Part shown: piece by piece, positions 6,154 through 18,293 of the stretch | How the letters are laid out: the number at the start of each line of letters is the position of its first letter | Numbering within the stretch: the first letter of the stretch is position 1 | Virus genome (UHGV): UHGV-0114973 | Direction: 5' to 3' (one strand) | DNA length: 18,293 nucleotides | From: a virus | Notes under the pieces: model-generated | The model's database searches: none | What the model was told of the DNA's origin: nothing | Seen by the model: only the letters and a program-made list of their open reading frames with translations | Program-made: the position numbers and the translations under genes

Positions 6154-8677
6154 AGTCATCTATCACACTAATCCTGTTGAACACGCTGATAACGTTGACT
6201 TTGGTGAATGGATGCTGAAACGCTGGCCCGTGGGTACAGTTCGTCCGCGTGGGTTACTGATTTATAAAAACGACGAAAACATTACCCAAAAGTGGGTTAC
6301 TGACCCCAGCGTATTGACTGATCCTGATGCTGTTTATCATATTTATGAACTACCAAAAGGTGGAGTGGTTAGTGCAATAACGAAAGTTATTAGCACAATT
6401 TTAAATCCCATTTTAAAATTGTTCATGCCGAATACCAGTGCATCGGCTAATCTTAAGAATTCACGTTCAGCATCGTCTAACAACGCGCTTCAGGGGCGTA
6501 CTAATGCTTCACGACCGGGTGAACGTATTTCTGATATCCGCGGTCGTGTACTGGCATATCCTGACCTGTTAATGGACTACCGAATCTTCATTGACCGAAC
6601 AGAATATGAAGTTCAGTTTCTGTGTCTGGGTGCTGGTGAATACGAAGTCGAAGATGTTCGTGATGGTATTACACCTGCTGTAAATATCAGCGGTGAAAAA
6701 TTAGACTTTTATAAAAAAGGTAATGCACCAGGGTATGGTTCTCCATATATGAATATCGGTGGTGCAATTGATATTAACACTTTTCCGATCATGGTTGCTA
6801 AGTCGTCGAACGAAGCAGACGGATCTGAAGTCAAGCCACCAAACTATGCTGATATCAGCAAAGCGAGTTTTAAAATTTACAGCACTGGTGAAATTGATAC
6901 TACGATTACCAGTGATGATAACACTACGATTGACTGGTCGGAACGTGCACCAATCGGTAGTAAAATTCGTTTATCACAATTTTACAGTTTTACACCTAAT
7001 ACGTTACCGTTAAACACGTATGTACGTAATGACCTGTCCGGTGAATATGATGTTATTTATGCAGGTGAGAATACGTTAATCATTGATACTACTGGTCGTG
7101 AAGGTTGGGATGCTCTGTCTGAAAGTGGTCAGGCTGCATATACACAGGCTTATTTGCGAAACGACGGTTACTGGGAATTTGAAACCACTGAAGGAAGTGG
7201 AAGTATTTTATACAAGTTTTCACCGTCTCTTGACAGTACCACACCGTATATTGTCGGGCCTTATCTGATTGACAGTGCGGATAAGTTGATGATTAATCTT
7301 TATGCACAGAATGGTGTGTATAAAACTGATGGCGACATTTATCCGTTCACCTGTAATTTCCAGGTAGTATTGTCAGACCCGAACGGTGTGAAAGCGAATG
7401 TGACACACTCTATGTCTGTTCGCGGTCGTTATACAGAAGCCGTAGGTAATTCATTAATTGTGGATAACCCTTTTGACGGTCCTGTCAACGTGTCTGTAAG
7501 ACGACTATCAAATACAGATAAAGACTTCGAAGGGTCTGTTGTTGACAACATCAAGTGGCGCGATTTATACGCTATCACGAATGTTTCTCCGCGTTCCTAT
7601 GGTGATGTGACATTGATCCATACAGTGACAAAAGCAACAAACGCTGCACTGAAACAAAAAGAACGTAAATTAAACATGATTGCAACACGTGTGTATAACG
7701 ATGTTGCAAGTAGTAATTTTGCAGACGTTGTAATGTCAATGCACACAGATCCTTTATTTGGTCGTCGCACATTGGACACTATTGATCGCGATGCTTTATA
7801 TGCTGTTCAGGAACAACTTCTTGAATATTTTGGTGACCAACGAGCAATTGAAGTTGGCTATACGTTTGATAATAACAGTACGACGTACGAAGAAGGATTG
7901 GACACTATCTGTAACACGGTGAATGTTAAACCGTATCAGATCGGTAGTGTATTGTATTTCTGGCCTGAATTACCACAGAACCAGTCCGCAATGCAGTTTG
8001 GTCACGCATTTAAGATCCCTGACAGTGATAAACGTACGCGCTCTTTTGCGCCACCTAAAGAATATACTGGTGTTCAGGTTAAATACTTCGATCACGATGA
8101 AAAATCATATTTATACGTAACTAAAGGTGAGGAAACAAACCTCAATAAGATAGATCTTGTCGCATGTCAGTCGCGATATCTTGCAAATATCCGTGCTAAT
8201 CGTGAAATGAATAAGTTACGTTATCAACGTATTACCCACGAGTGTACAGCGCTTAGTATTGGATTACAGGCTACCCCAGGTATGCGAGTGGATATGATTG
8301 ACAATACCCGTATGAAACAACATGAAGGTGTTGTAGTTGACGTTGACGGTTTAACACTTATTCTTAGTGATCCTGTTACGTTCACCACGGGTAATACATA
8401 CAGTATAACATTGACACACCGACTGGGAACACTTGAAAACATTCCTGTAACTGCCGGGGATGATGAGTTTTCCGTGGTGATGGCGTACCAGCCATCTGAA
8501 GAAATTTATACAGGATGGTTGCGTGACCGTACAGCATATGTGATCCGTGCTGATGATGAGCGTAGCAAATTAGCAATGCTTGTTCAGAGTATGGAACCGT
8601 CAGGAAGGGATAATAACTATCAGGTAGGTTTAACGTGCATCAATTACGATGCACGTTATTATCAGGATGATTTATAA
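6146..8677 (+). CDS. tail tip/hub protein (gpJ-like, without a long C-terminal receptor-binding extension)
   Basis: 843-aa ORF starting at a GTG with GGAGA 7 nt upstream, overlapping the previous stop. Large beta-rich protein at the end of the tail assembly operon. Confidence 0.6.
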
Positions 8678-9135: not shown

Positions 9136-11397
9136 TCATGTTATGTTGCCATATGTTGCTGATGATACCTGATTTATCACAGCGGAAGAACCTGAACCTT
9201 TACGTATACCGTTTACATCAGCTGACATTAGTGCCGGTAAGGTTACTTTAGAACTCCCGCCTGCATATCCAAGATTACCCGCTGTTGTACCAGAAGTCCT
9301 AAGGCCAGTTATTAGGAGAGAACCGGCGCTACAAACAAACCCAGAGAAAGGTGCTGCTGGTATACCTTGAATATTAACCAGATCTAAATCTGCAACAGTG
9401 TAATTGCAATTTGAAATTAATGCAGGTATCAAAGACCCATAAACACCTAAACGTAAGCGTACATTAGATGATTGGTTCTTTAGCACCGCAACAGCCGTTT
9501 CAGTGGCGGAAGAGCCTGTCACGTTGTAAACATTGAAATCCAACTTCAGAGGCGCTCCTGGCTTACCCGCAAAACCAGTTGTCGAATCATCAATAAGTCC
9601 GTAATTAACGTTCATTACGTTACCCTGAATTACTCCAGTTGCCCCAGATCCTGGTGAAGCAGGGTTGAACGCAATGGCCCTGTAAGTAACTACGGTAGAT
9701 GATGACTCACCGTTACCTTTAATATTAACATTGGTAATTGAAACTCTGTTATCTATTGTACCAAAGTAAATAGGAGTCGCCGGGCAGGCCTTACTCTCCA
9801 AACCACTAAGGGTTACAAGGTTTATGCCAGTCTGTGTAATCAAAGCGGGCCATGCTGGTATATAATTACCAAATGCTAAATCGGACACCTGGTTAGAGAA
9901 TCCTTTAATAATGGTGCCATTAGACACGCATGAGCTAAAGGCCACTCCGTTCACGCAGTGCTCAACCAATAGATTGCCGAAAAAATGGTCAATAAGTGAC
10001 TCAAACTGGATACCAACACCGCCTCGCCTGACACCATTCGCGTCTGTACGAAGATATTTAAACCCAGCAGACCAAATATCGTATGTATAAACACTATCAG
10101 AGCTGGAGATTAAAAGACCAGCACCAGTGCGTCCCGCCCATCGGGCGTCACCTGTAGCATTAAAATCGTAAAATGTAACTTTAAATCCTTGAAATGTGTG
10201 CATCTCTCCGCTCATGTCACTAAATTCAATCGCGGCATTGCTTTCTTCTGAAGGATTTGTCAGCACAATATAAGACAATCCCATCCCTGCACCAATCATT
10301 CCTCCGCCATTTTTGTTGTAACGAATCGTAGAAGGTGACGTAACGCGATACCATAACTTAAGATGGCTATCTATTCTGTATTTTCCCGGTGAAAGTAGGA
10401 TATATGACTGGAAATACTCGGATTGATAATAGCTGCCAGCAACTACCTCCACGTTAAATTCACCACACGTCGCATGCCATGCTTTATGGAACGCGTCAGT
10501 GCAGTCAATGCTTGAAGCTAACTCATCATAAGTGTTAACTGTTTTTGCTCCGAACCATTCAGGTCTAACAGGTCCCGTTGGAACTTTCACAGATGGTACA
10601 GTTAGATAATTGGCGATAAAATCATCTTCTGTGTCAAATATTTGATAACAACCAGCATCAATTTCTGCATTAAATTTAACGACTGCACCGTTTCTTATTT
10701 TTAATACTGCACCATGAATAAAAGTAACAGGAATATTAAATGTAATGTTTGAATTTATAAGATATGTACCGGGGACAAATACGACAGGATTGCCAGATGA
10801 CGAAAGATTTTCTAGAGCGGCATTTATCCCCGGCGCATCATCAGTGACACCATCACCAGTGACATTAGCCATATCTTTAATTGATATATGCTCAGATAGC
10901 CAATCGTGAACAGTCTTAATTTTAGAACCGTTTATTGGTTGCATGGTTGCTATAAGTGAGTCGCCAAAACCGTCAGCATCTGAACTTAAATTAGCACGCA
11001 ATGAAGCATCACCAACACTAACCCATCCACCAAGACCAATGCCACCAGCAGTTTCCGGAGTTGAACCAGTATCAACTGTTTTAGGAAACTCGCCATCCCA
11101 GCGGTAATATTCACCAGTTGCTTCGTAACGCAATACCTGATTAGGTAATGTAAGTATCGCACCATCTTCGAAGCTATCCATCGTTATATAGCCGACCTGA
11201 GATATAGCCTGATTGTACAGGGTTTCTAAACCATCAAGTGTCTTGTTGGTCACTGATTGACCACGGATCGTATCGGTAACATCCAACGCGTGTTTACCGT
11301 TTTCATCACGACTTTTTGCAACGTGTTCAATATGTAAAATCGCTTGTTTGCCTGTTTTCAAATCATCAGCACTGATATAATCGTTACAGTTAGCCAT
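9136..11397 (-). CDS. tailspike protein, probable polysaccharide depolymerase with a right-handed beta-helix
   Basis: Start taken at the ATG 11397 (MANCNDY...) with GGAGA 7 nt upstream, rather than the TTG at 11424. After an N-terminal module of about 190 aa comes NVTGDGVTDDAPGINAALENLSSSGNPVVFVPGTYLINSNITF, the hallmark start of pectate-lyase-type beta-helix tailspikes. The remainder is Gly/Ser/Asn/Thr-rich. Confidence 0.8.
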   Translation of the reverse strand: MANCNDYISADDLKTGKQAILHIEHVAKSRDENGKHALDVTDTIRGQSVTNKTLDGLETLYNQAISQVGYITMDSFEDGAILTLPNQVLRYEATGEYYRWDGEFPKTVDTGSTPETAGGIGLGGWVSVGDASLRANLSSDADGFGDSLIATMQPINGSKIKTVHDWLSEHISIKDMANVTGDGVTDDAPGINAALENLSSSGNPVVFVPGTYLINSNITFNIPVTFIHGAVLKIRNGAVVKFNAEIDAGCYQIFDTEDDFIANYLTVPSVKVPTGPVRPEWFGAKTVNTYDELASSIDCTDAFHKAWHATCGEFNVEVVAGSYYQSEYFQSYILLSPGKYRIDSHLKLWYRVTSPSTIRYNKNGGGMIGAGMGLSYIVLTNPSEESNAAIEFSDMSGEMHTFQGFKVTFYDFNATGDARWAGRTGAGLLISSSDSVYTYDIWSAGFKYLRTDANGVRRGGVGIQFESLIDHFFGNLLVEHCVNGVAFSSCVSNGTIIKGFSNQVSDLAFGNYIPAWPALITQTGINLVTLSGLESKACPATPIYFGTIDNRVSITNVNIKGNGESSSTVVTYRAIAFNPASPGSGATGVIQGNVMNVNYGLIDDSTTGFAGKPGAPLKLDFNVYNVTGSSATETAVAVLKNQSSNVRLRLGVYGSLIPALISNCNYTVADLDLVNIQGIPAAPFSGFVCSAGSLLITGLRTSGTTAGNLGYAGGSSKVTLPALMSADVNGIRKGSGSSAVINQVSSATYGNIT
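11373..11381 (+). promoter_or_regulatory. candidate extended -10 promoter (TGaTATAAT) for the lysis genes, inside the tailspike 5' coding region
   Basis: TG at 11373-11374 and a perfect TATAAT at 11376-11381, about 40 nt upstream of the ATG at 11424. No good -35 element. The divergent start codons are only 26 bp apart, so a promoter must lie inside a neighbouring gene. Confidence 0.25.
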
Positions 11398-11423
11398 CTT
11401 TAAGTCTCCAGGAGTGTAGAACA

Positions 11424-11702
11424 ATGTCTGATAACCCGGTGTTGAGGTATTGGCCTATAATAGCATTTGTTGCCACGGGGTTGGTAGGTTACGGGGTAAC
11501 TCAAAACCAAATCAATTCTAATGAAAAAGATATTGCAGATGCAAAAACCTATGCGCATGAGGCGCTTAATCTGGCAAAACGAGTGGAATCCCGAGTGGAT
11601 GTTCACGACATCAAAATCGAATATCAGGCCACACAGAACGCTGAAATCCTCACCAGTGTTAAAGAGCTAACACAGTCAACAAATGAAAGCGGAACAACGT
11701 AA
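11424..11702 (+). CDS. small single-pass membrane protein, lysis-associated (holin or antiholin candidate)
   Basis: 92 aa. One N-terminal hydrophobic segment (WPIIAFVATGLVGYGV) followed by a charged helical region. AGGAG 9 nt upstream. Immediately precedes the endolysin gene. Confidence 0.4.
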   Translation: MSDNPVLRYWPIIAFVATGLVGYGVTQNQINSNEKDIADAKTYAHEALNLAKRVESRVDVHDIKIEYQATQNAEILTSVKELTQSTNESGTT

Positions 11703-13536: not shown

Positions 13537-13882
13537 GTTCCGGTACGCTCTCCACACTGTAATAAACGGGGATGCCCAGACGTTCAGCTTCTGCAATTTC
13601 TGCTAGCGTACCAGACGAACGACGATAATCAGGAAGCACCAGAACAGCGTCACAGCGGCGCATAATTTCTAACGTACCTGATAGGTAGTATTCAGGTTGT
13701 ATATTGCGTAAACCGCCGTCAAAATCCCACAATTCGGTGTTCTTGTGAGGAATAACCGGGAACCATCCCGGACGTTGTAAAGCCAGTCGTTTACCTGCCT
13801 GTTCAGCGCGTGACACGTTACGGGATGTTTTAAGCGCACAATCAGCACGATAAGGCCCGGCAATGTAACAGAGTTTAATCAT
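13529..13882 (-). CDS. nucleoside 2-deoxyribosyltransferase-like (NDT / DUF1937-type fold) protein
   Basis: Start taken at the ATG 13882 (MIKLCYIAGPY...) with AGGAAA 6 nt upstream. N-terminal YIAGP motif and a later D...SSGTLAEIAEAERLGIPVYY segment match my recollection of the two signature segments of the deoxyribosyltransferase / Rcl-type Rossmann fold. Overlaps both neighbours by 8 nt. Confidence 0.6.
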   Translation of the reverse strand: MIKLCYIAGPYRADCALKTSRNVSRAEQAGKRLALQRPGWFPVIPHKNTELWDFDGGLRNIQPEYYLSGTLEIMRRCDAVLVLPDYRRSSGTLAEIAEAERLGIPVYYSVESVPEHG

Positions 13883-14210
13883 GGTTGTTTTCCTGCATCT
13901 GTAAGAACACAATCATTGCGGCACGGAGTGGGTTAGCGTGAGAACAATAAATTGTAGGTTCGTTAATCATATCCCAACCACATTGATCAAATTCAAAATC
14001 ACCCCAGGCTAACCATTCGTTTTCATTAGTGTCAAACGCAATGCTAATCTTATTTTCAATAATAATCGGCATTGCGTCTGTAGGGTTATTGCAGTAATCA
14101 ACTACTTGATTCACCAGTTCCAGACGATGTTCGTGTGATGGTTCACCGTATAATTTACGACTAACCATTGCGTTGATTGAAATATCACTTAAAACACTGT
14201 AATCAGTCAT
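13875..14210 (-). CDS. small strongly acidic protein (111 aa), DNA-mimic / anti-restriction candidate
   Basis: ATG at 14210-14208 with GAGGGAA upstream, overlapping the previous stop (ATGACTGA). I count about 18 Asp+Glu against 5 Lys+Arg, so the predicted pI is near 4. No recognisable catalytic motif. Confidence 0.5.
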   Translation of the reverse strand: MTDYSVLSDISINAMVSRKLYGEPSHEHRLELVNQVVDYCNNPTDAMPIIIENKISIAFDTNENEWLAWGDFEFDQCGWDMINEPTIYCSHANPLRAAMIVFLQMQENNHD

Positions 14211-14778: not shown

Positions 14779-16635
14779 TTACCGAAGTGGTGCAACGAGT
14801 TTTTCAGCTTCTTTGATGTAAAAATCATAATTGAGCGTTGCCCGGTTAAAACGTTTCATGTCGTTACATTCCGTGGTCAACCAACCTTTGCACACGGACA
14901 TACGGCGCTCAGGCGCGTCAGGGTTCAGTTTCAGTGATTTTGCCAGCGGTGGCATGACTTTTGTCAAAGGTGCACCATCTGTACTGACGTAATAACGGGT
15001 AATGTTCTGAACCTGTTTATCACCCCATAGTAATTTGCTGTTACGTGGTACTTTCGTCACTAACATGAAATCGTGAATATCTTCGTGTGATGTTATAAAA
15101 TCACGAATGTCTTTATTGTGTACCAGTGCTGCTTCAGCCGCTTTTGCGACAACCTGCATACTGTGGTTTTGATGCCAACCCAGATCAACGCTGTGACAAT
15201 AAGCGCCTTTACGTTTAACTTTCTTACCGCCTTCGTAAACAGCGATGTAATTATTTACATCGCGGATAAACATCACGTCATAAATTGCTTCTTCAAGCTG
15301 GAGTCTGGTTAATTTTTCCCACGCGTGACGAACCTGTTCTACTTGTCCGGTAAACACTCGTGGCACGTAAACCGTAAGACCATCTGTGTTAGCCTGGATC
15401 ATGGACAAACCAGGGATTTTCAGAAGTTCTTCAGCCAACATACACAAAAGTAACTGTCCGTTAATCGTAATAGCCATTGTGTAAGCAGGATCGTAGAATG
15501 GACTGTATACGTTATTACTGTCACCATACACACCGTTTAACGCCAGTTTTAACATTGCATTTTCTGGTGTACCTTTCGGGTAACTGGAACGCATGTCGTA
15601 AACATTTTTATAAATGGTGCAAAATTGTTTTCCCAGATGTGCCGGATAAAGTTCATTACTGATCGCAAGGTTCGGATAAAAACTGGCAACGTCCAGATCG
15701 ATGATCACATAATTTTCAGTGGACCTGATAGTTTGAGACTCAATAGACCCGTGGATACCACCCGTACCAAAATCAAACGAGAACCCGTTAATGTCTGCGC
15801 TTAAATCTGTGAATACACCTTTTGTTTCAGTGATAACCTGTTGACGTAACCAGTTAAGAACACGATTAAATTCAGGCTGTTCAAAACGGACATAAGGGAA
15901 AATCACACTGTTCAATGCGATTGATGGTCTGTGCGTCTGTCGTGGTTTTCTGCTACCCGGTTCGAAACATTGAATACCTGATTTTTCAAGTTCCATGATG
16001 AAATATTCTTTACCGATTTTCGTGTCGTTATGGTTCATGAAATTACGACCGTATTTAGCAGAAAGTTCACGACGAAAATCTATCAGCTTTTTACTGTGTT
16101 TATAAAACATCAAAGTCGCTTTCAAATCGTGCATCAGATATTGACGAAGCGTATCAATTTGAGAATCGGTTAAATAAGTCCCTGGCGTAAACGGAAGGTC
16201 TTCAATGTTTTCCATTCTCATATTGAATTCAAGTGTTTTCAGACTTGTTCGTTTTGCCTGATTGTCGAAATGATGAATTTTATACAAATCAAGCTGGGGA
16301 ACTATCCAGTCTTTTTCCCACACCATATGAGCAAAACGATTTTCATCACCAGCGTTAATTATTGAATCACCTTTTTTATAAATGTCTGCGTTGGTGATAT
16401 ACATGATGTTGTTCAAAATAGAATGCTGAACAGGATAGTCGTAACCCAGATTGTTATAACCAATTTCTTCAGCACGATGTTCACGCAAATATTCTGTGAA
16501 CAGGTAAAAAGCCTGACGATCATCGCGACGATGTGAAATCTCAAAAATATAAGGCGTTTCGGTTAACGCGTGAATAGCACCGAACAGAAAAACATTAGGA
16601 TAGTTTTCAATATCGTGAACGTAAGCATCTGACAT
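14779..16635 (-). CDS. compact family-B DNA polymerase with a 3'-5' exonuclease domain
   Basis: 618 aa. Exo I D8-I-E10; Exo II N62-L-G-Y-D66; Exo III Y166-L-M-H-D170 (spacing close to phi29 DNA polymerase); motif A D315-V-A-S-F-Y-P (Dx2SLYP-type); motif B K363-L-A-L-N-G-V-Y-G (Kx3NSxYG-type); motif C N416-T-D418 (an NTD variant of DTD). Motifs are only 48 and 55 aa apart and no TPR-like insertions are evident. Confidence 0.7.
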   Translation of the reverse strand: MSDAYVHDIENYPNVFLFGAIHALTETPYIFEISHRRDDRQAFYLFTEYLREHRAEEIGYNNLGYDYPVQHSILNNIMYITNADIYKKGDSIINAGDENRFAHMVWEKDWIVPQLDLYKIHHFDNQAKRTSLKTLEFNMRMENIEDLPFTPGTYLTDSQIDTLRQYLMHDLKATLMFYKHSKKLIDFRRELSAKYGRNFMNHNDTKIGKEYFIMELEKSGIQCFEPGSRKPRQTHRPSIALNSVIFPYVRFEQPEFNRVLNWLRQQVITETKGVFTDLSADINGFSFDFGTGGIHGSIESQTIRSTENYVIIDLDVASFYPNLAISNELYPAHLGKQFCTIYKNVYDMRSSYPKGTPENAMLKLALNGVYGDSNNVYSPFYDPAYTMAITINGQLLLCMLAEELLKIPGLSMIQANTDGLTVYVPRVFTGQVEQVRHAWEKLTRLQLEEAIYDVMFIRDVNNYIAVYEGGKKVKRKGAYCHSVDLGWHQNHSMQVVAKAAEAALVHNKDIRDFITSHEDIHDFMLVTKVPRNSKLLWGDKQVQNITRYYVSTDGAPLTKVMPPLAKSLKLNPDAPERRMSVCKGWLTTECNDMKRFNRATLNYDFYIKEAEKLVAPLR

Positions 16636-16715: not shown

Positions 16716-17537
16716 TCAGTAACCGTTACCGTTGAGAAAATTCGGGGCCGGGGTGGTCATTACCATATAACCATTAGCAATCAGTTGTTCATCGTTCCAA
16801 CCTTGCGCAATAAACTGTTCGTAAGTTGCACCACCTGCTTTTTCAGTCATTACTTTTACAGGTGCTGCCGCTGGTGTAGGCGCTGCTACAGGTGCTGCCG
16901 CTGGTGTAGGCGCTGCTACAGGTGCTGCCGCTGGTGTTACGCCGATCGGACGTGCACCTTCAGGCATTGCAGGAGCAGCGCCAAACACAGAGGCAGGAGC
17001 CGGACCGGAAATGATTTCTTCACCCGCATAAAGCAATTGCGCCATTTCCATGTTGATATACACACCAGCCTGGTTACCTGTACGACCGTTTGCAACAGAT
17101 GATCCGCTGATACGGTAGTAATAACCTTTTTTCGCCAGATTTTTATCAATAACTGGCTGGTACGCTGCGTTATAAACCGGACACGCGTCAATAGCCACGT
17201 TGCGTGAGAAACCAATTACCCAGTGACCAGCATAACCAGTTTTACTCGCATGTTTCGGATCATCACCGTTAATAATTTTCCATGCGAAAGTAGGTTGTTG
17301 TGGTTCGCCGTTCACATAGTGTGAGTTCGCCGCTCGCATAATCGCCTGGAATACCGCACCCAGTTCACCTTGTTCTTCCCACCAGTTCGCCGCTGTTTTA
17401 GGAAACGCCAGACCAACCCACCAGTTGTGTTTTTCAGGTGCTAACGGTTTATTTTCGTGGTCATGAGTGTTGATATCGAAAAAAGAACCGCCAACCAGAC
17501 GACCAACCGGAGTTACAAAAGATTCTTTCTGTGCCAT
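16716..17537 (-). CDS. replication-associated protein with a PA-rich repeat linker; possibly an ssDNA-binding protein
   Basis: 273 aa with AGAAGG ribosome-binding site 8 nt upstream. The N-terminus MAQKESFVTPVG loosely resembles the start of T7 gp2.5-type SSBs, which is weak evidence. Three tandem PAAAPVAAPT units form a linker before a short C-terminal domain. Sits directly upstream of PolB in the same operon. Confidence 0.45.
   Translation of the reverse strand: MAQKESFVTPVGRLVGGSFFDINTHDHENKPLAPEKHNWWVGLAFPKTAANWWEEQGELGAVFQAIMRAANSHYVNGEPQQPTFAWKIINGDDPKHASKTGYAGHWVIGFSRNVAIDACPVYNAAYQPVIDKNLAKKGYYYRISGSSVANGRTGNQAGVYINMEMAQLLYAGEEIISGPAPASVFGAAPAMPEGARPIGVTPAAAPVAAPTPAAAPVAAPTPAAAPVKVMTEKAGGATYEQFIAQGWNDEQLIANGYMVMTTPAPNFLNGNGY
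16861..16937. repeat. 30-bp tandem repeat, about 2.6 copies
   Basis: GGTGCTGCCGCTGGTGTAGGCGCTGCTACA occurs at 16861-16890 and 16891-16920, with a partial third copy at 16921-16937. It lies inside the 273-aa gene and encodes the PAAAPVAAPT repeats. Confidence 0.9.
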
Positions 17538-17552
17538 GTTATTAACCTTCTT

Positions 17553-18293
17553 TTAAAGTGGACGTGCGCCAGTCGGCATCGTCACGGGTTTATTAAAAAC
17601 AGATTCTGCCAGTGTGCTGTGACCTTTACGCGGGTCACTGTCAGGTACTAAAACTGGCTGACCTTCTGGTTTTGTCGTACACATGTCAACAAGTGCCGGA
17701 GGCAGTGATTTTTCCAGTGTTGACAATGGTTTTAATTTACGTTCGTACAATGTTTCAGGGTTTACACCAAACATTGGTGCAGCACCGATCAGTTTTCCTT
17801 CGTCCGTAAGCTGACGTCGGGTTTGTTTTGTTGCAAGTTTAAAACCCGGTAAAGCCTTACCCATGCGAACAAAATGTAATCCCTGAGTATGTAACGCTGT
17901 TTTTGCTTCAGAAGAACGCGTATACAGTTCTTCAAGAAGTGCCAGACGACGCGCTACTTCTTCTGGCGTAAGTGATGGTGGTGCGTCAAGAACAGTAGCC
18001 AATTCTAAAACCCTCTCATACATTGCCGGACACATACCACGCGCCGGACAGTAATGACAATGACTACCAACATTTAACGGTGCGTCTGGTTTATGTGCTT
18101 CGTTAAACCCGTGTTTAAATCGTTCAGCCCATTCCATCAATGTTGCCCGGTTAAACTCCCATCGTCTTACAGGTCCGAGTGGGTGATAAGCCCGTGGCTG
18201 AACAATTGTGAACACAACGCGCTTAACGGTGTCGATGCAACGTTGGTCCAGTGCATAATAGACCCCCTGTGAGTTATCAACTGCTTCAACTGC
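17553..18293 (-). CDS. Cas4/RecB-like PD-(D/E)XK nuclease candidate, partial (N-terminus beyond the window)
   Basis: The minus-strand frame stays open to the window edge. Contains the cluster C-H-Y-C-P-A-R-G-M-C (C-x2-C-x5-C), as in Fe-S-bearing RecB-family nucleases, followed by a C-terminal extension of about 150 aa. The nuclease core motifs would lie upstream and were not seen. Confidence 0.45.
   Translation of the reverse strand, partial: AVEAVDNSQGVYYALDQRCIDTVKRVVFTIVQPRAYHPLGPVRRWEFNRATLMEWAERFKHGFNEAHKPDAPLNVGSHCHYCPARGMCPAMYERVLELATVLDAPPSLTPEEVARRLALLEELYTRSSEAKTALHTQGLHFVRMGKALPGFKLATKQTRRQLTDEGKLIGAAPMFGVNPETLYERKLKPLSTLEKSLPPALVDMCTTKPEGQPVLVPDSDPRKGHSTLAESVFNKPVTMPTGARPL

Follow-up and report, generated by a model that had tools for sequence, protein, structure and literature searches.

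A Sashavirus DUF2800-family exonuclease whose C-terminal tail resembles that of its Gp2.5-like neighbour

The minus strand of the virus genome UHGV-0114973 carries, at positions 17553 to 18293 of the 18,293-nucleotide stretch analysed here (the window), the 3′ two thirds of a Sashavirus DUF2800 exonuclease gene. It belongs to a family of phage exonucleases that is known and catalogued, and we place very high confidence in its assignment to DUF2800 and to the PD-(D/E)XK nucleases of the Cas4/AdnA/RecB type. The locus itself adds little, being a textbook family member with near-identical copies in GenBank that are annotated as exonuclease. The family matters more widely, as it is common and central to a replication and recombination module of phages. 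The C-terminal domain and the tail make up a third of the protein to which no role has been assigned, and the question that they raise concerns the whole family, not this locus in particular.

The explanation that we favour, and consider reasonably probable when taken as a whole, combines the DUF2800 exonuclease identity with an inferred role in DNA end resection and annealing, a domain that grips DNA and a tail that serves for docking. The protein consists of an N-terminal PD-(D/E)XK core of the Cas4/AdnA/RecB type, a folded, net-basic domain of ~135 residues that is constant in the family, and a flexible tail of ~20 residues with a conserved Phe motif. The nuclease would resect DNA ends to give ssDNA, and the Gp2.5-like ssDNA-binding/annealing protein (SSAP) encoded next to it would coat and anneal this ssDNA for recombination-dependent replication and repair, the two proteins acting as a two-component recombinase of the Red/RecET type. 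The basic C-terminal domain would hold the DNA, and tails containing a Phe residue may bring nuclease and SSAP to one surface, whether on the polymerase, on the helicase or in the SSAP's own OB cleft. Clustering of RecE-like exonuclease genes with genes for Gp2.5-like recombinases has been reported, the latter being active in annealing in vivo, and the exonucleases have been proposed to supply ssDNA to these recombinases (PMC2896510).

The gene and its family

Translation of positions 17553 to 18293 on the minus strand gives a single open frame of 246 codons plus a stop (TAA at 17553-17555), and the remaining two minus-strand frames of this region are full of stops. The open frame runs past the window end, and its 5′ 135 codons, counted in relatives, lie beyond the window. 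Full-length homologues in the relatives' genomes, including that of phage Solent (98% DNA identity), have 381 codons and encode 381 amino acids. The 741 nt were assigned as the 3′ part of a DUF2800-family exonuclease gene using the open frame, the matches to PF10926 and PHROG 69 and the comparison with Solent. At the DNA level the window matches Sashavirus (9NA-like phage) genomes with 96-98% identity, those matched being the Salmonella phages Solent, Sasha and Sergei and the Escherichia phages PJ16 and Bas82, and the region is ~80% identical to the DNA of Klebsiella phage Carvaje. The encoded protein is 98-99% identical to annotated Sashavirus proteins (99% for gp0068 of Bas82, a phage of E. 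coli K-12), and in GenBank the gene is labelled in different relatives as hypothetical protein, DUF2800 protein or exonuclease.

The fragment matched the Pfam family DUF2800 (PF10926) with 115.8 bits, for a cutoff of 21 (E=3.3e-33), and covered profile positions 145-368 of 368. The full-length homologue P0001 matched the same family with 194.8 bits, with model positions 1-368 corresponding to residues 4-358. P0001 also scored above the cutoff of 22 for PDDEXK_1 (PF12705) at 29.3 bits; the fragment alone, at 19.7 bits, fell below it. The PHROG search returned PHROG 69, 'exonuclease', at E=8e-90, and a search of NCBIfam with the three proteins of the module (nuclease, SSAP and polymerase) gave nothing.

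The AF2 model of the full-length homologue had a mean pLDDT of 89.4 and a pTM of 0.77. Its best fold matches in the PDB were AdnA (6ppu), Cas4 (8d3l), RecE, lambda Exo, MGME1, Exo5 and Dna2, with Foldseek TM-scores that are modest (0.30-0.39) and are normalised by the two-domain query. A profile search against solved structures gave weak matches (E ~0.02) that placed the DxK, QxxxY and CxxCx5C motifs in register with AdnA and 9iab. Profile searches and structure prediction were the checks that an earlier, sequence-only reading of this DNA had proposed, and both came out in favour of its Cas4/AddB-type assignment, the motifs aligning with AdnA, Cas4 and RecE and the AF2 fold matching AdnA and Cas4. 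A single-sequence search of the PDB with the full-length protein returned one match, to a ribosomal protein, which was rejected as chance.

Set beside the other DUF2800/PHROG 69 exonucleases (those of Sasha and Solent, gp0068 of Bas82, and Bas14_0045, also named B14T), the protein has the same model match, the same motifs and the same gene order. No difference was seen at the protein level; at the level of the module, Sashavirus has a family-B polymerase and a non-acidic tail motif. According to a 2026 preprint, immunity by retron type IX is set off by the homologue Bas14_0045 through its nuclease activity, an effect for which its catalytic residues are needed in vivo (bioRxiv 10.64898/2026.07.14.737667). 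Our literature search found no solved structure and no published enzymology for any DUF2800 member, and nothing relevant in the way of 9NA-specific work on the nuclease gene. DUF2800 is also absent from the main text of the 2012 survey of PD-(D/E)XK nucleases.

The nuclease core and its cysteine cluster

The sequence-only reading drew attention to the stretch CHYCPARGMC, and translation of positions 18030 to 18059 (minus strand; residues 79-88 of the fragment) confirmed its presence. The stretch would supply three of four predicted Fe-S ligands, C214, C217 and C223 in the full-length numbering, which we took from the 381-residue relatives. The spacing C-x2-C-x5-C alone is no evidence for such a site, because translating the window in six frames yields nine instances of it, most of them in frames that are non-coding. 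We consider the cluster real because all three cysteines are invariant in an alignment of 32 homologues (25-81% identity), down to the most distant at 25%. The conservation that the sequence-only reading had made a test of its proposal was therefore found in the homologues, with one variation in spacing: three of the 32 have C-x4-C-x5-C in place of C-x2-C-x5-C.

Invariant in the same alignment are D114, K131, Q144 and Y148, and C18, H45 and D129 are conserved in at least 90% of the homologues. Q144 and Y148 form the QxxxY motif (QGVYY, positions 18255 to 18269, minus strand), which aligns with the corresponding motif of AdnA and 9iab. C18, the N-terminal fourth ligand, lies outside the window, as do D114, D129 and K131, and the latter three were taken from the relatives with 98-99% identity. 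It had been suggested that the upstream sequence be obtained to look for the N-terminal nuclease motifs; the relatives supply C18, H45, D114, D129-x-K131 and Q144-xxx-Y148, and the PD-(D/E)XK motifs are present. Together with the cysteine triplet these make up the complete motif set known from RecB/AddB/Cas4-type nucleases. In the profile search CHYCPARGMC aligns with CANCPVRSSC of AdnA. The proposal that the cysteine triplet has the ligand spacing of Cas4- and AddB-type Fe-S nucleases is thus supported by the conserved motifs and by the profile and fold matches to AdnA, Cas4 and RecE. Judged by these alignments, the predicted four-cysteine cluster would staple the nuclease fold and most likely holds a [4Fe-4S] centre.

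It is also conceivable that the cysteines bind zinc or merely stabilise the fold, with no [4Fe-4S] centre at all, since C-x2-C motifs often bind Zn. We think this improbable, as both the full pattern C...C-x2-C-x5-C and its placement relative to the DxK and QxxxY motifs match AdnA and Cas4. AdnA and Cas4 are Fe-S proteins.

The order of the PD-(D/E)XK, QxxxY and C...C-x2-C-x5-C motifs is the same as in the nuclease domains of AdnA, AddB and RecB (PDB 6ppu). Those domains form the C-terminal part of subunits that combine helicase and nuclease, and the chain stops shortly past the cluster, whereas the protein described here stands alone at 381 residues, continues for ~158 residues after the cluster and has no helicase domain. 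CRISPR-associated Cas4 (PDB 8d3l) is likewise a small nuclease that stands alone; it belongs to the same superfamily and has a four-cysteine cluster and a matching fold, but the present protein is almost twice as large through its C-terminal domain. Lambda Exo and RecE, unlike the DUF2800 nuclease with its predicted cluster, lack an Fe-S cluster and form toroids.

The likeness to Cas4 raises the idea that the protein is a viral Cas4 and either disturbs CRISPR adaptation in the host or makes use of it. Superfamily and four-cysteine cluster are shared, the fold search ranked Cas4 from a type I-C adaptation complex second, and some relatives carry the label 'Cas4 family exonuclease'. We nevertheless find the idea very hard to credit. 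P0001 had no match to the Cas4 Pfam family (PF01930) at E-values up to 10, its only matches being DUF2800 and PDDEXK_1; the gene context is one of replication and recombination, with no cas genes; and the DUF2800 protein has an extra C-terminal domain. The gene is moreover linked to an SSAP gene in a wider sample, with 77 of 80 IMG/VR loci encoding a Gp2.5-like SSAP together with a DUF2800 protein that is complete. Because there is neither a Cas4 Pfam match nor a cas context, the nuclease is filed here as Cas4-like and not as Cas4.

The C-terminal extension

After the last cysteine of the cluster we counted 158 residues, in agreement with the 'about 150' of the sequence-only reading. That reading had also held that such a cluster normally lies near the C-terminus. 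This is true of the AdnA structure 6ppu and of 9iab, in which the cluster is 3-6 residues from the chain end, but not of DUF2800 proteins: all 32 homologues are extended, by 142-171 residues after the last cysteine. The further suggestion, that the extension is unusual and represents an appended domain, did not survive the comparison, as the Pfam DUF2800 model spans the extension and 32 of 32 homologues possess it.

Stated in full, this suggestion would have a domain added in the present phage lineage to a nuclease of Cas4 size. The contrast between 158 residues here and 3-6 in the AdnA and 9iab chains speaks for it, and so does the observation that the Cas4-like proteins of phages Bcep43, Bakoly and RHEph19 match residues 1-240 of the query only. 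The Pfam model and the homologues tell against it, however, and so do three further results. The last 158 residues alone matched positions 234-368 of the 368 in PF10926 (E=2.7e-14). A profile built from the extension only found 17,380 cluster-representative proteins at E ≤0.001; among the best 150 of these, most are 360-434 residues long, carry the domain C-terminally and so have the same architecture, and the shorter ones also have it at their C-terminus and are consistent with fragments. Finally, 1,021 of 50,697 phage records matched the full-length protein, and 840 of the 1,021 covered at least 80% of the query. Homologue lengths, Pfam model coverage and the domain-only profile together refute a lineage-specific addition, to which we give next to no credence. 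By these comparisons the extension is integral to the DUF2800 family and not an appendage of this locus.

Most of the extension is a family-specific C-terminal domain, residues 224-360 (positions 17619 to 18029, minus strand). In the full-length AF2 model this region is folded confidently, with block-mean pLDDT values of 87-95; it begins with one helix and a second of 34 residues, which are followed by a beta-hairpin, a number of short helices and a strand (LVPDxDxR). Three stretches are conserved: G280-x3-P-G-[FWY]-K-L-V-x-K-x3-R-x-W-x-D, which is carried by the hairpin, P-x-Q-x-E-K, and L-x-P-x2-D-x-R. The net charge of residues 279-359 is between +1 and +8 in 32 of 32 homologues, and that of the nuclease core is negative. 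Charge and conservation together suggest that the basic C-terminal domain binds nucleic acid.

Searches for a relative of this domain outside the family were made in several ways. Foldseek found no significant match for the C-terminal model in the PDB (best E=1.2). When the C-terminal domains of 26 members were searched against Pfam and PHROG at relaxed E-values, only DUF2800 and phrog_69 recurred; kinship with Siphovirus Gp157-like proteins was considered and dropped, no such match appearing in this search. When a profile of the C-terminal alignment was run against the PDB, it returned helical matches only, at E ≥0.01, and these were rejected as chance. A Foldseek search of BFVD gave DUF2800 proteins and, weakly, stand-alone phage proteins of 130-175 residues, which makes a stand-alone form of the domain possible. 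Modelled alone, the domain reached a pTM of 0.54. It may therefore not be an independent unit, and because of this value we think that the nuclease core probably supports its fold.

The nuclease-SSAP-polymerase module and the shared tail

The sequence-only reading placed the nuclease gene at the head of an operon with a putative SSB and PolB. Both neighbours were borne out; the leading position was not. In Solent, Bas82 and Carvaje one more co-directional gene, encoding 253-262 residues, lies immediately upstream of the nuclease gene with overlapping stop and start, and a divergent helicase gene is found beyond it. The upstream gene belongs to phrog_27827, which has no function assigned in PHROG.

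Downstream, the SSAP gene (positions 16716 to 17537, minus strand; 273 residues) begins 15 nt after the nuclease stop, and the spacer contains a ribosome-binding site, AAGAAGG. Its product was identified as Gp2.5-like by matches to Pfam PF10991 (Enc34_ssDNA-bd; 26.5 bits, cutoff 26) and to phrog_7011 (E=9e-94). The third gene of the module encodes a family-B DNA polymerase of 618 residues (positions 14779 to 16635, minus strand), which matched phrog_1252, 'DNA polymerase', at E=1.7e-215. A Pfam search of the polymerase gave no match, and its sequence matches in the PDB were weak and only to family-B enzymes (archaeal PolB and E. coli Pol II). The polymerase motifs were read from the translation as DIE (ExoI), DVASFYPN (A), KLALNGVYG (B) and NTDG (C).

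The gene neighbours of the nuclease comprise the SSAP, polymerase, helicase, methylase and NinX, and the order nuclease / Gp2.5-like SSAP / polymerase is conserved. A duf2800-gp2.5-polA module has been described earlier (PMC8093625); here nuclease and SSAP are likewise adjacent, but in Sashavirus a family-B polymerase takes the place of the family-A enzyme PolA. An exonuclease gene beside an SSAP gene is also the arrangement of lambda Exo/Red-beta, RecE/RecT and T7 gp6/gp2.5.

The nuclease ends in a low-confidence C-terminal tail (residues 361-381; positions 17556 to 17618, minus strand), with block-mean pLDDT values of 49-64 in the model, that carries F368. This Phe is conserved in 97% of homologues, usually in an acidic setting (DDF or DEF). 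The tail is probably disordered, going by the model. In the Bas14 preprint the wording is "C-terminal disordered region"; in our AF2 model disorder-like values are confined to the final tail.

The last 16 residues of the nuclease, SVFNKPVTMPTGARPL (positions 17556 to 17603, minus strand), have a counterpart in the SSAP, SVFGAAPAMPEGARPI (positions 16944 to 16991, minus strand), which lies directly after the OB fold. Nine of the 16 residues are identical, with identical spacing, and both follow the pattern SVF-x5-MP-x-GARP-[LI]. A search of the six-frame translation of the window for 'GARP' or 'MP.GA' matched only the nuclease tail and the SSAP. A recent duplication of the motif at the DNA level was considered and rejected, on the grounds that the two stretches agree at 26 of 48 nucleotides and that synonymous differences occur at four of the nine identical residues.

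Comparable pairs of tails were seen in unrelated phages as well. With the nuclease given first and the SSAP second, the pair in the window phage is VFNKPVTMPTGARPL / VFGAAPAMPEGARPI, and another cognate pair is DEFSVVDASEI / DEFSVVDTAEM. The tails in Staphylococcus phage P240 are SAEDDFDKL and SAAEDDFDEL, with the cores EDDFDKL and EDDFDEL; those in Achromobacter phage Axy16 are ASDFAEV and ASDFAGM; those in a Coprococcus phage are AEADFKED and AKDEFEAV; and those in Proteus phage Isfahan are AVFGEY and QVFGSF. Pairs without specific tail likeness also exist, for example at loci L050 and L069 and in Vibrio phage K389.

The tails were compared systematically at the 80 IMG/VR loci, 77 of which had both proteins; these were reduced to 29 pairs whose nucleases share less than 60% identity. 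Every nuclease was scored by its last 30 residues against the post-OB tail of each SSAP, and with relatedness among loci crudely controlled the mean score was 22.6 for cognate and 18.2 for non-cognate combinations. None of 20,000 permutations of the pairing reached the observed mean for the 29 pairs, and with the identity cut-off lowered to 45% (22 pairs) one of 20,000 did so. The effect is visible in the mean more than in single cases: the cognate SSAP ranked first for 6 of the 29 nucleases, and the median cognate rank was ~8 of 29. Control tails gave no significant result, the observed value being reached in 3,352 of 20,000 permutations with reversed tails and in 6,375 of 20,000 with shuffled tails. 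We therefore reject the explanation that acidic composition alone makes the tails alike; because the reversed and shuffled controls were not significant, the effect lies in the order of the motif and not in its composition.

These comparisons suggest that the Phe tail is a docking peptide common to nuclease and SSAP. There is a model for this in phage T7, where the helicase-primase gp4 bears an acidic, Phe-ending tail similar to that of gp2.5 and both tails dock on the polymerase. As in T7, two replisome proteins would have similar Phe-containing tails, but here the second carrier is the nuclease and not the helicase-primase, and the Sashavirus motif is non-acidic. Targets documented for the acidic tail of T7 gp2.5 are polymerase, helicase and the DNA-binding cleft of gp2.5 itself (PMC10359462, PMC5686142). 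In the lambda system the coupling is of another kind, lambda Exo binding the C-terminal domain of Red-beta (PDB 6m9k), whereas the link suggested here is a tail motif present in both proteins. Nuclease and SSAP might then compete for one partner surface, or be handed over on it. The more specific proposal, that the nuclease tail mimics and co-evolves with the tail of its cognate SSAP as a docking motif and that the basic domain is a DNA-binding fold with no solved counterpart, is one that we advance tentatively, as a serious candidate to which we give slightly less than even odds. Our literature search found no paper that describes a relationship between the tails of the nuclease and Gp2.5.

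A shared docking tail would also suit a replication-fork nuclease, that is, an enzyme that removes RNA primers or 5′ flaps in the manner of T7 gp6 or Dna2 and is recruited to the replisome by its tail. The gene sits within a nuclease-SSB-polymerase module, the PolB of the window has 3′-5′ exonuclease motifs and no 5′-3′ exonuclease domain was found in it, and the flap and ssDNA-end processors Dna2, MGME1 and Exo5 are among the fold matches; a tail in common with the SSB fits recruitment of the T7 kind (PMC10359462). Against this, the best fold and profile matches are the end-resection and recombination nucleases AdnA, RecE and lambda Exo, and the SSAP belongs to a family that anneals ssDNA in vivo (PMC2896510). 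On balance we regard a primary role at the fork as unlikely, though it is the strongest of the alternatives, and the fork and recombination roles are compatible with the same data and not mutually exclusive. T7 gp6 does both jobs.

Returning to the resection and annealing account, mimicry between the tails would, if true, mean a physical coupling of resection, annealing and synthesis in a module present in at least 1,000 sequenced phages. For a module so common in phages this would be new insight of moderate weight, and the pattern offers a cheap and testable handle on how the proteins of the module hold together. The distribution of tail types bears on which partner might be involved. A PolA-type polymerase is encoded in 60 of the loci, and the tails inspected among them are acidic and DDF-like. 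The PolB-linked loci (Sashavirus, Carvajevirus and Vibrio phage K389) have non-acidic VF or RF tails. This correspondence between tail class and polymerase type, seen in only two or three independent lineages, is a hint that the polymerase may be the partner of the tail.

Polymerase type and downstream genes

The nuclease and the adjoining gene for the Gp2.5-like ssDNA-binding/annealing protein (SSAP) belong to a module that also encodes a divergent family-B polymerase (14779-16635, minus strand), in which the B-family motifs are readable although the protein had no match in Pfam or NCBIfam. The published duf2800-gp2.5 module carries PolA instead. Among the fetched loci, PolA was present in 60, and the PolB type was confined to Sashavirus/Carvajevirus and Vibrio phage K389. 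Directly downstream of the polymerase are a 178-aa protein (phrog_19205) and then a homologue of P22 NinX (13875-14210, minus strand).

Repeat linker and C-terminal module of the SSAP

The SSAP contains a Pro/Ala-rich tandem repeat with the unit AAAPVAAPTP (16872-16931, minus strand), a region annotated as a 'direct tandem repeat region' in the Sasha and Sergei records. Two copies of the unit are present in the window and in Solent (273 aa) and nine in Bas82 (343 aa), so the length of the linker is hypervariable between near-identical phages. In the Carvaje SSAP the array is longer and built from a related unit.

In Gp2.5-like proteins the acidic tail is typically terminal, whereas here that place is taken by an extra C-terminal module of approximately 50 aa, KVMTEKAGGATYEQFIAQGWNDEQLIANGYMVMTTPAPNFLNGNGY, encoded 3' of the repeat linker (16716-16870, minus strand). 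A similar module, YTYEQLIASNYSEQQMIDSGYAEPNFLNPA, was found in another fetched locus (L080), and Vibrio phage K389 showed a looser likeness.

The DUF2800 C-terminal domain and possible retron sensing

According to a preprint, retron type IX (Sen3) is triggered by a DUF2800 nuclease that phage Bas14 encodes, and the C-terminus of this nuclease was described as disordered (bioRxiv 10.64898/2026.07.14.737667). In contrast to that description, residues 224-360 of the Sashavirus nuclease were predicted to fold with confidence in our model. Since Sashaviruses encode the same family as Bas14, they may likewise be sensed by this retron.

Matches to the modelled domain in BFVD included A0A411BJY5, A0A6J5Q1X5, A0A6J5NIM1 and R4TLL4. 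These lookalikes are stand-alone proteins of 130-175 aa from phages and archaeal viruses, and the likeness is weak (probability 0.93-1.0, TM 0.33-0.46). They may be the products of split genes, or the domain may also exist in a free-standing form.

Upstream gene and tailspike

In Solent, the gene upstream of the nuclease, outside the window, encodes a 253-aa protein (phrog_27827; L001, the Solent locus, 6195-6956, minus strand) that is conserved in Bas82 and Carvaje, and this is the first gene of the nuclease operon. Its label in the Solent record, 'putative TonB receptor protein', seems to read too much into a Pro/Ala-rich linker.

Elsewhere in the window, the presumed host-range determinant is a tailspike of 762 aa (9136-11424, minus strand), which combines a Tail_spike_N domain with one that is pectate-lyase-like.
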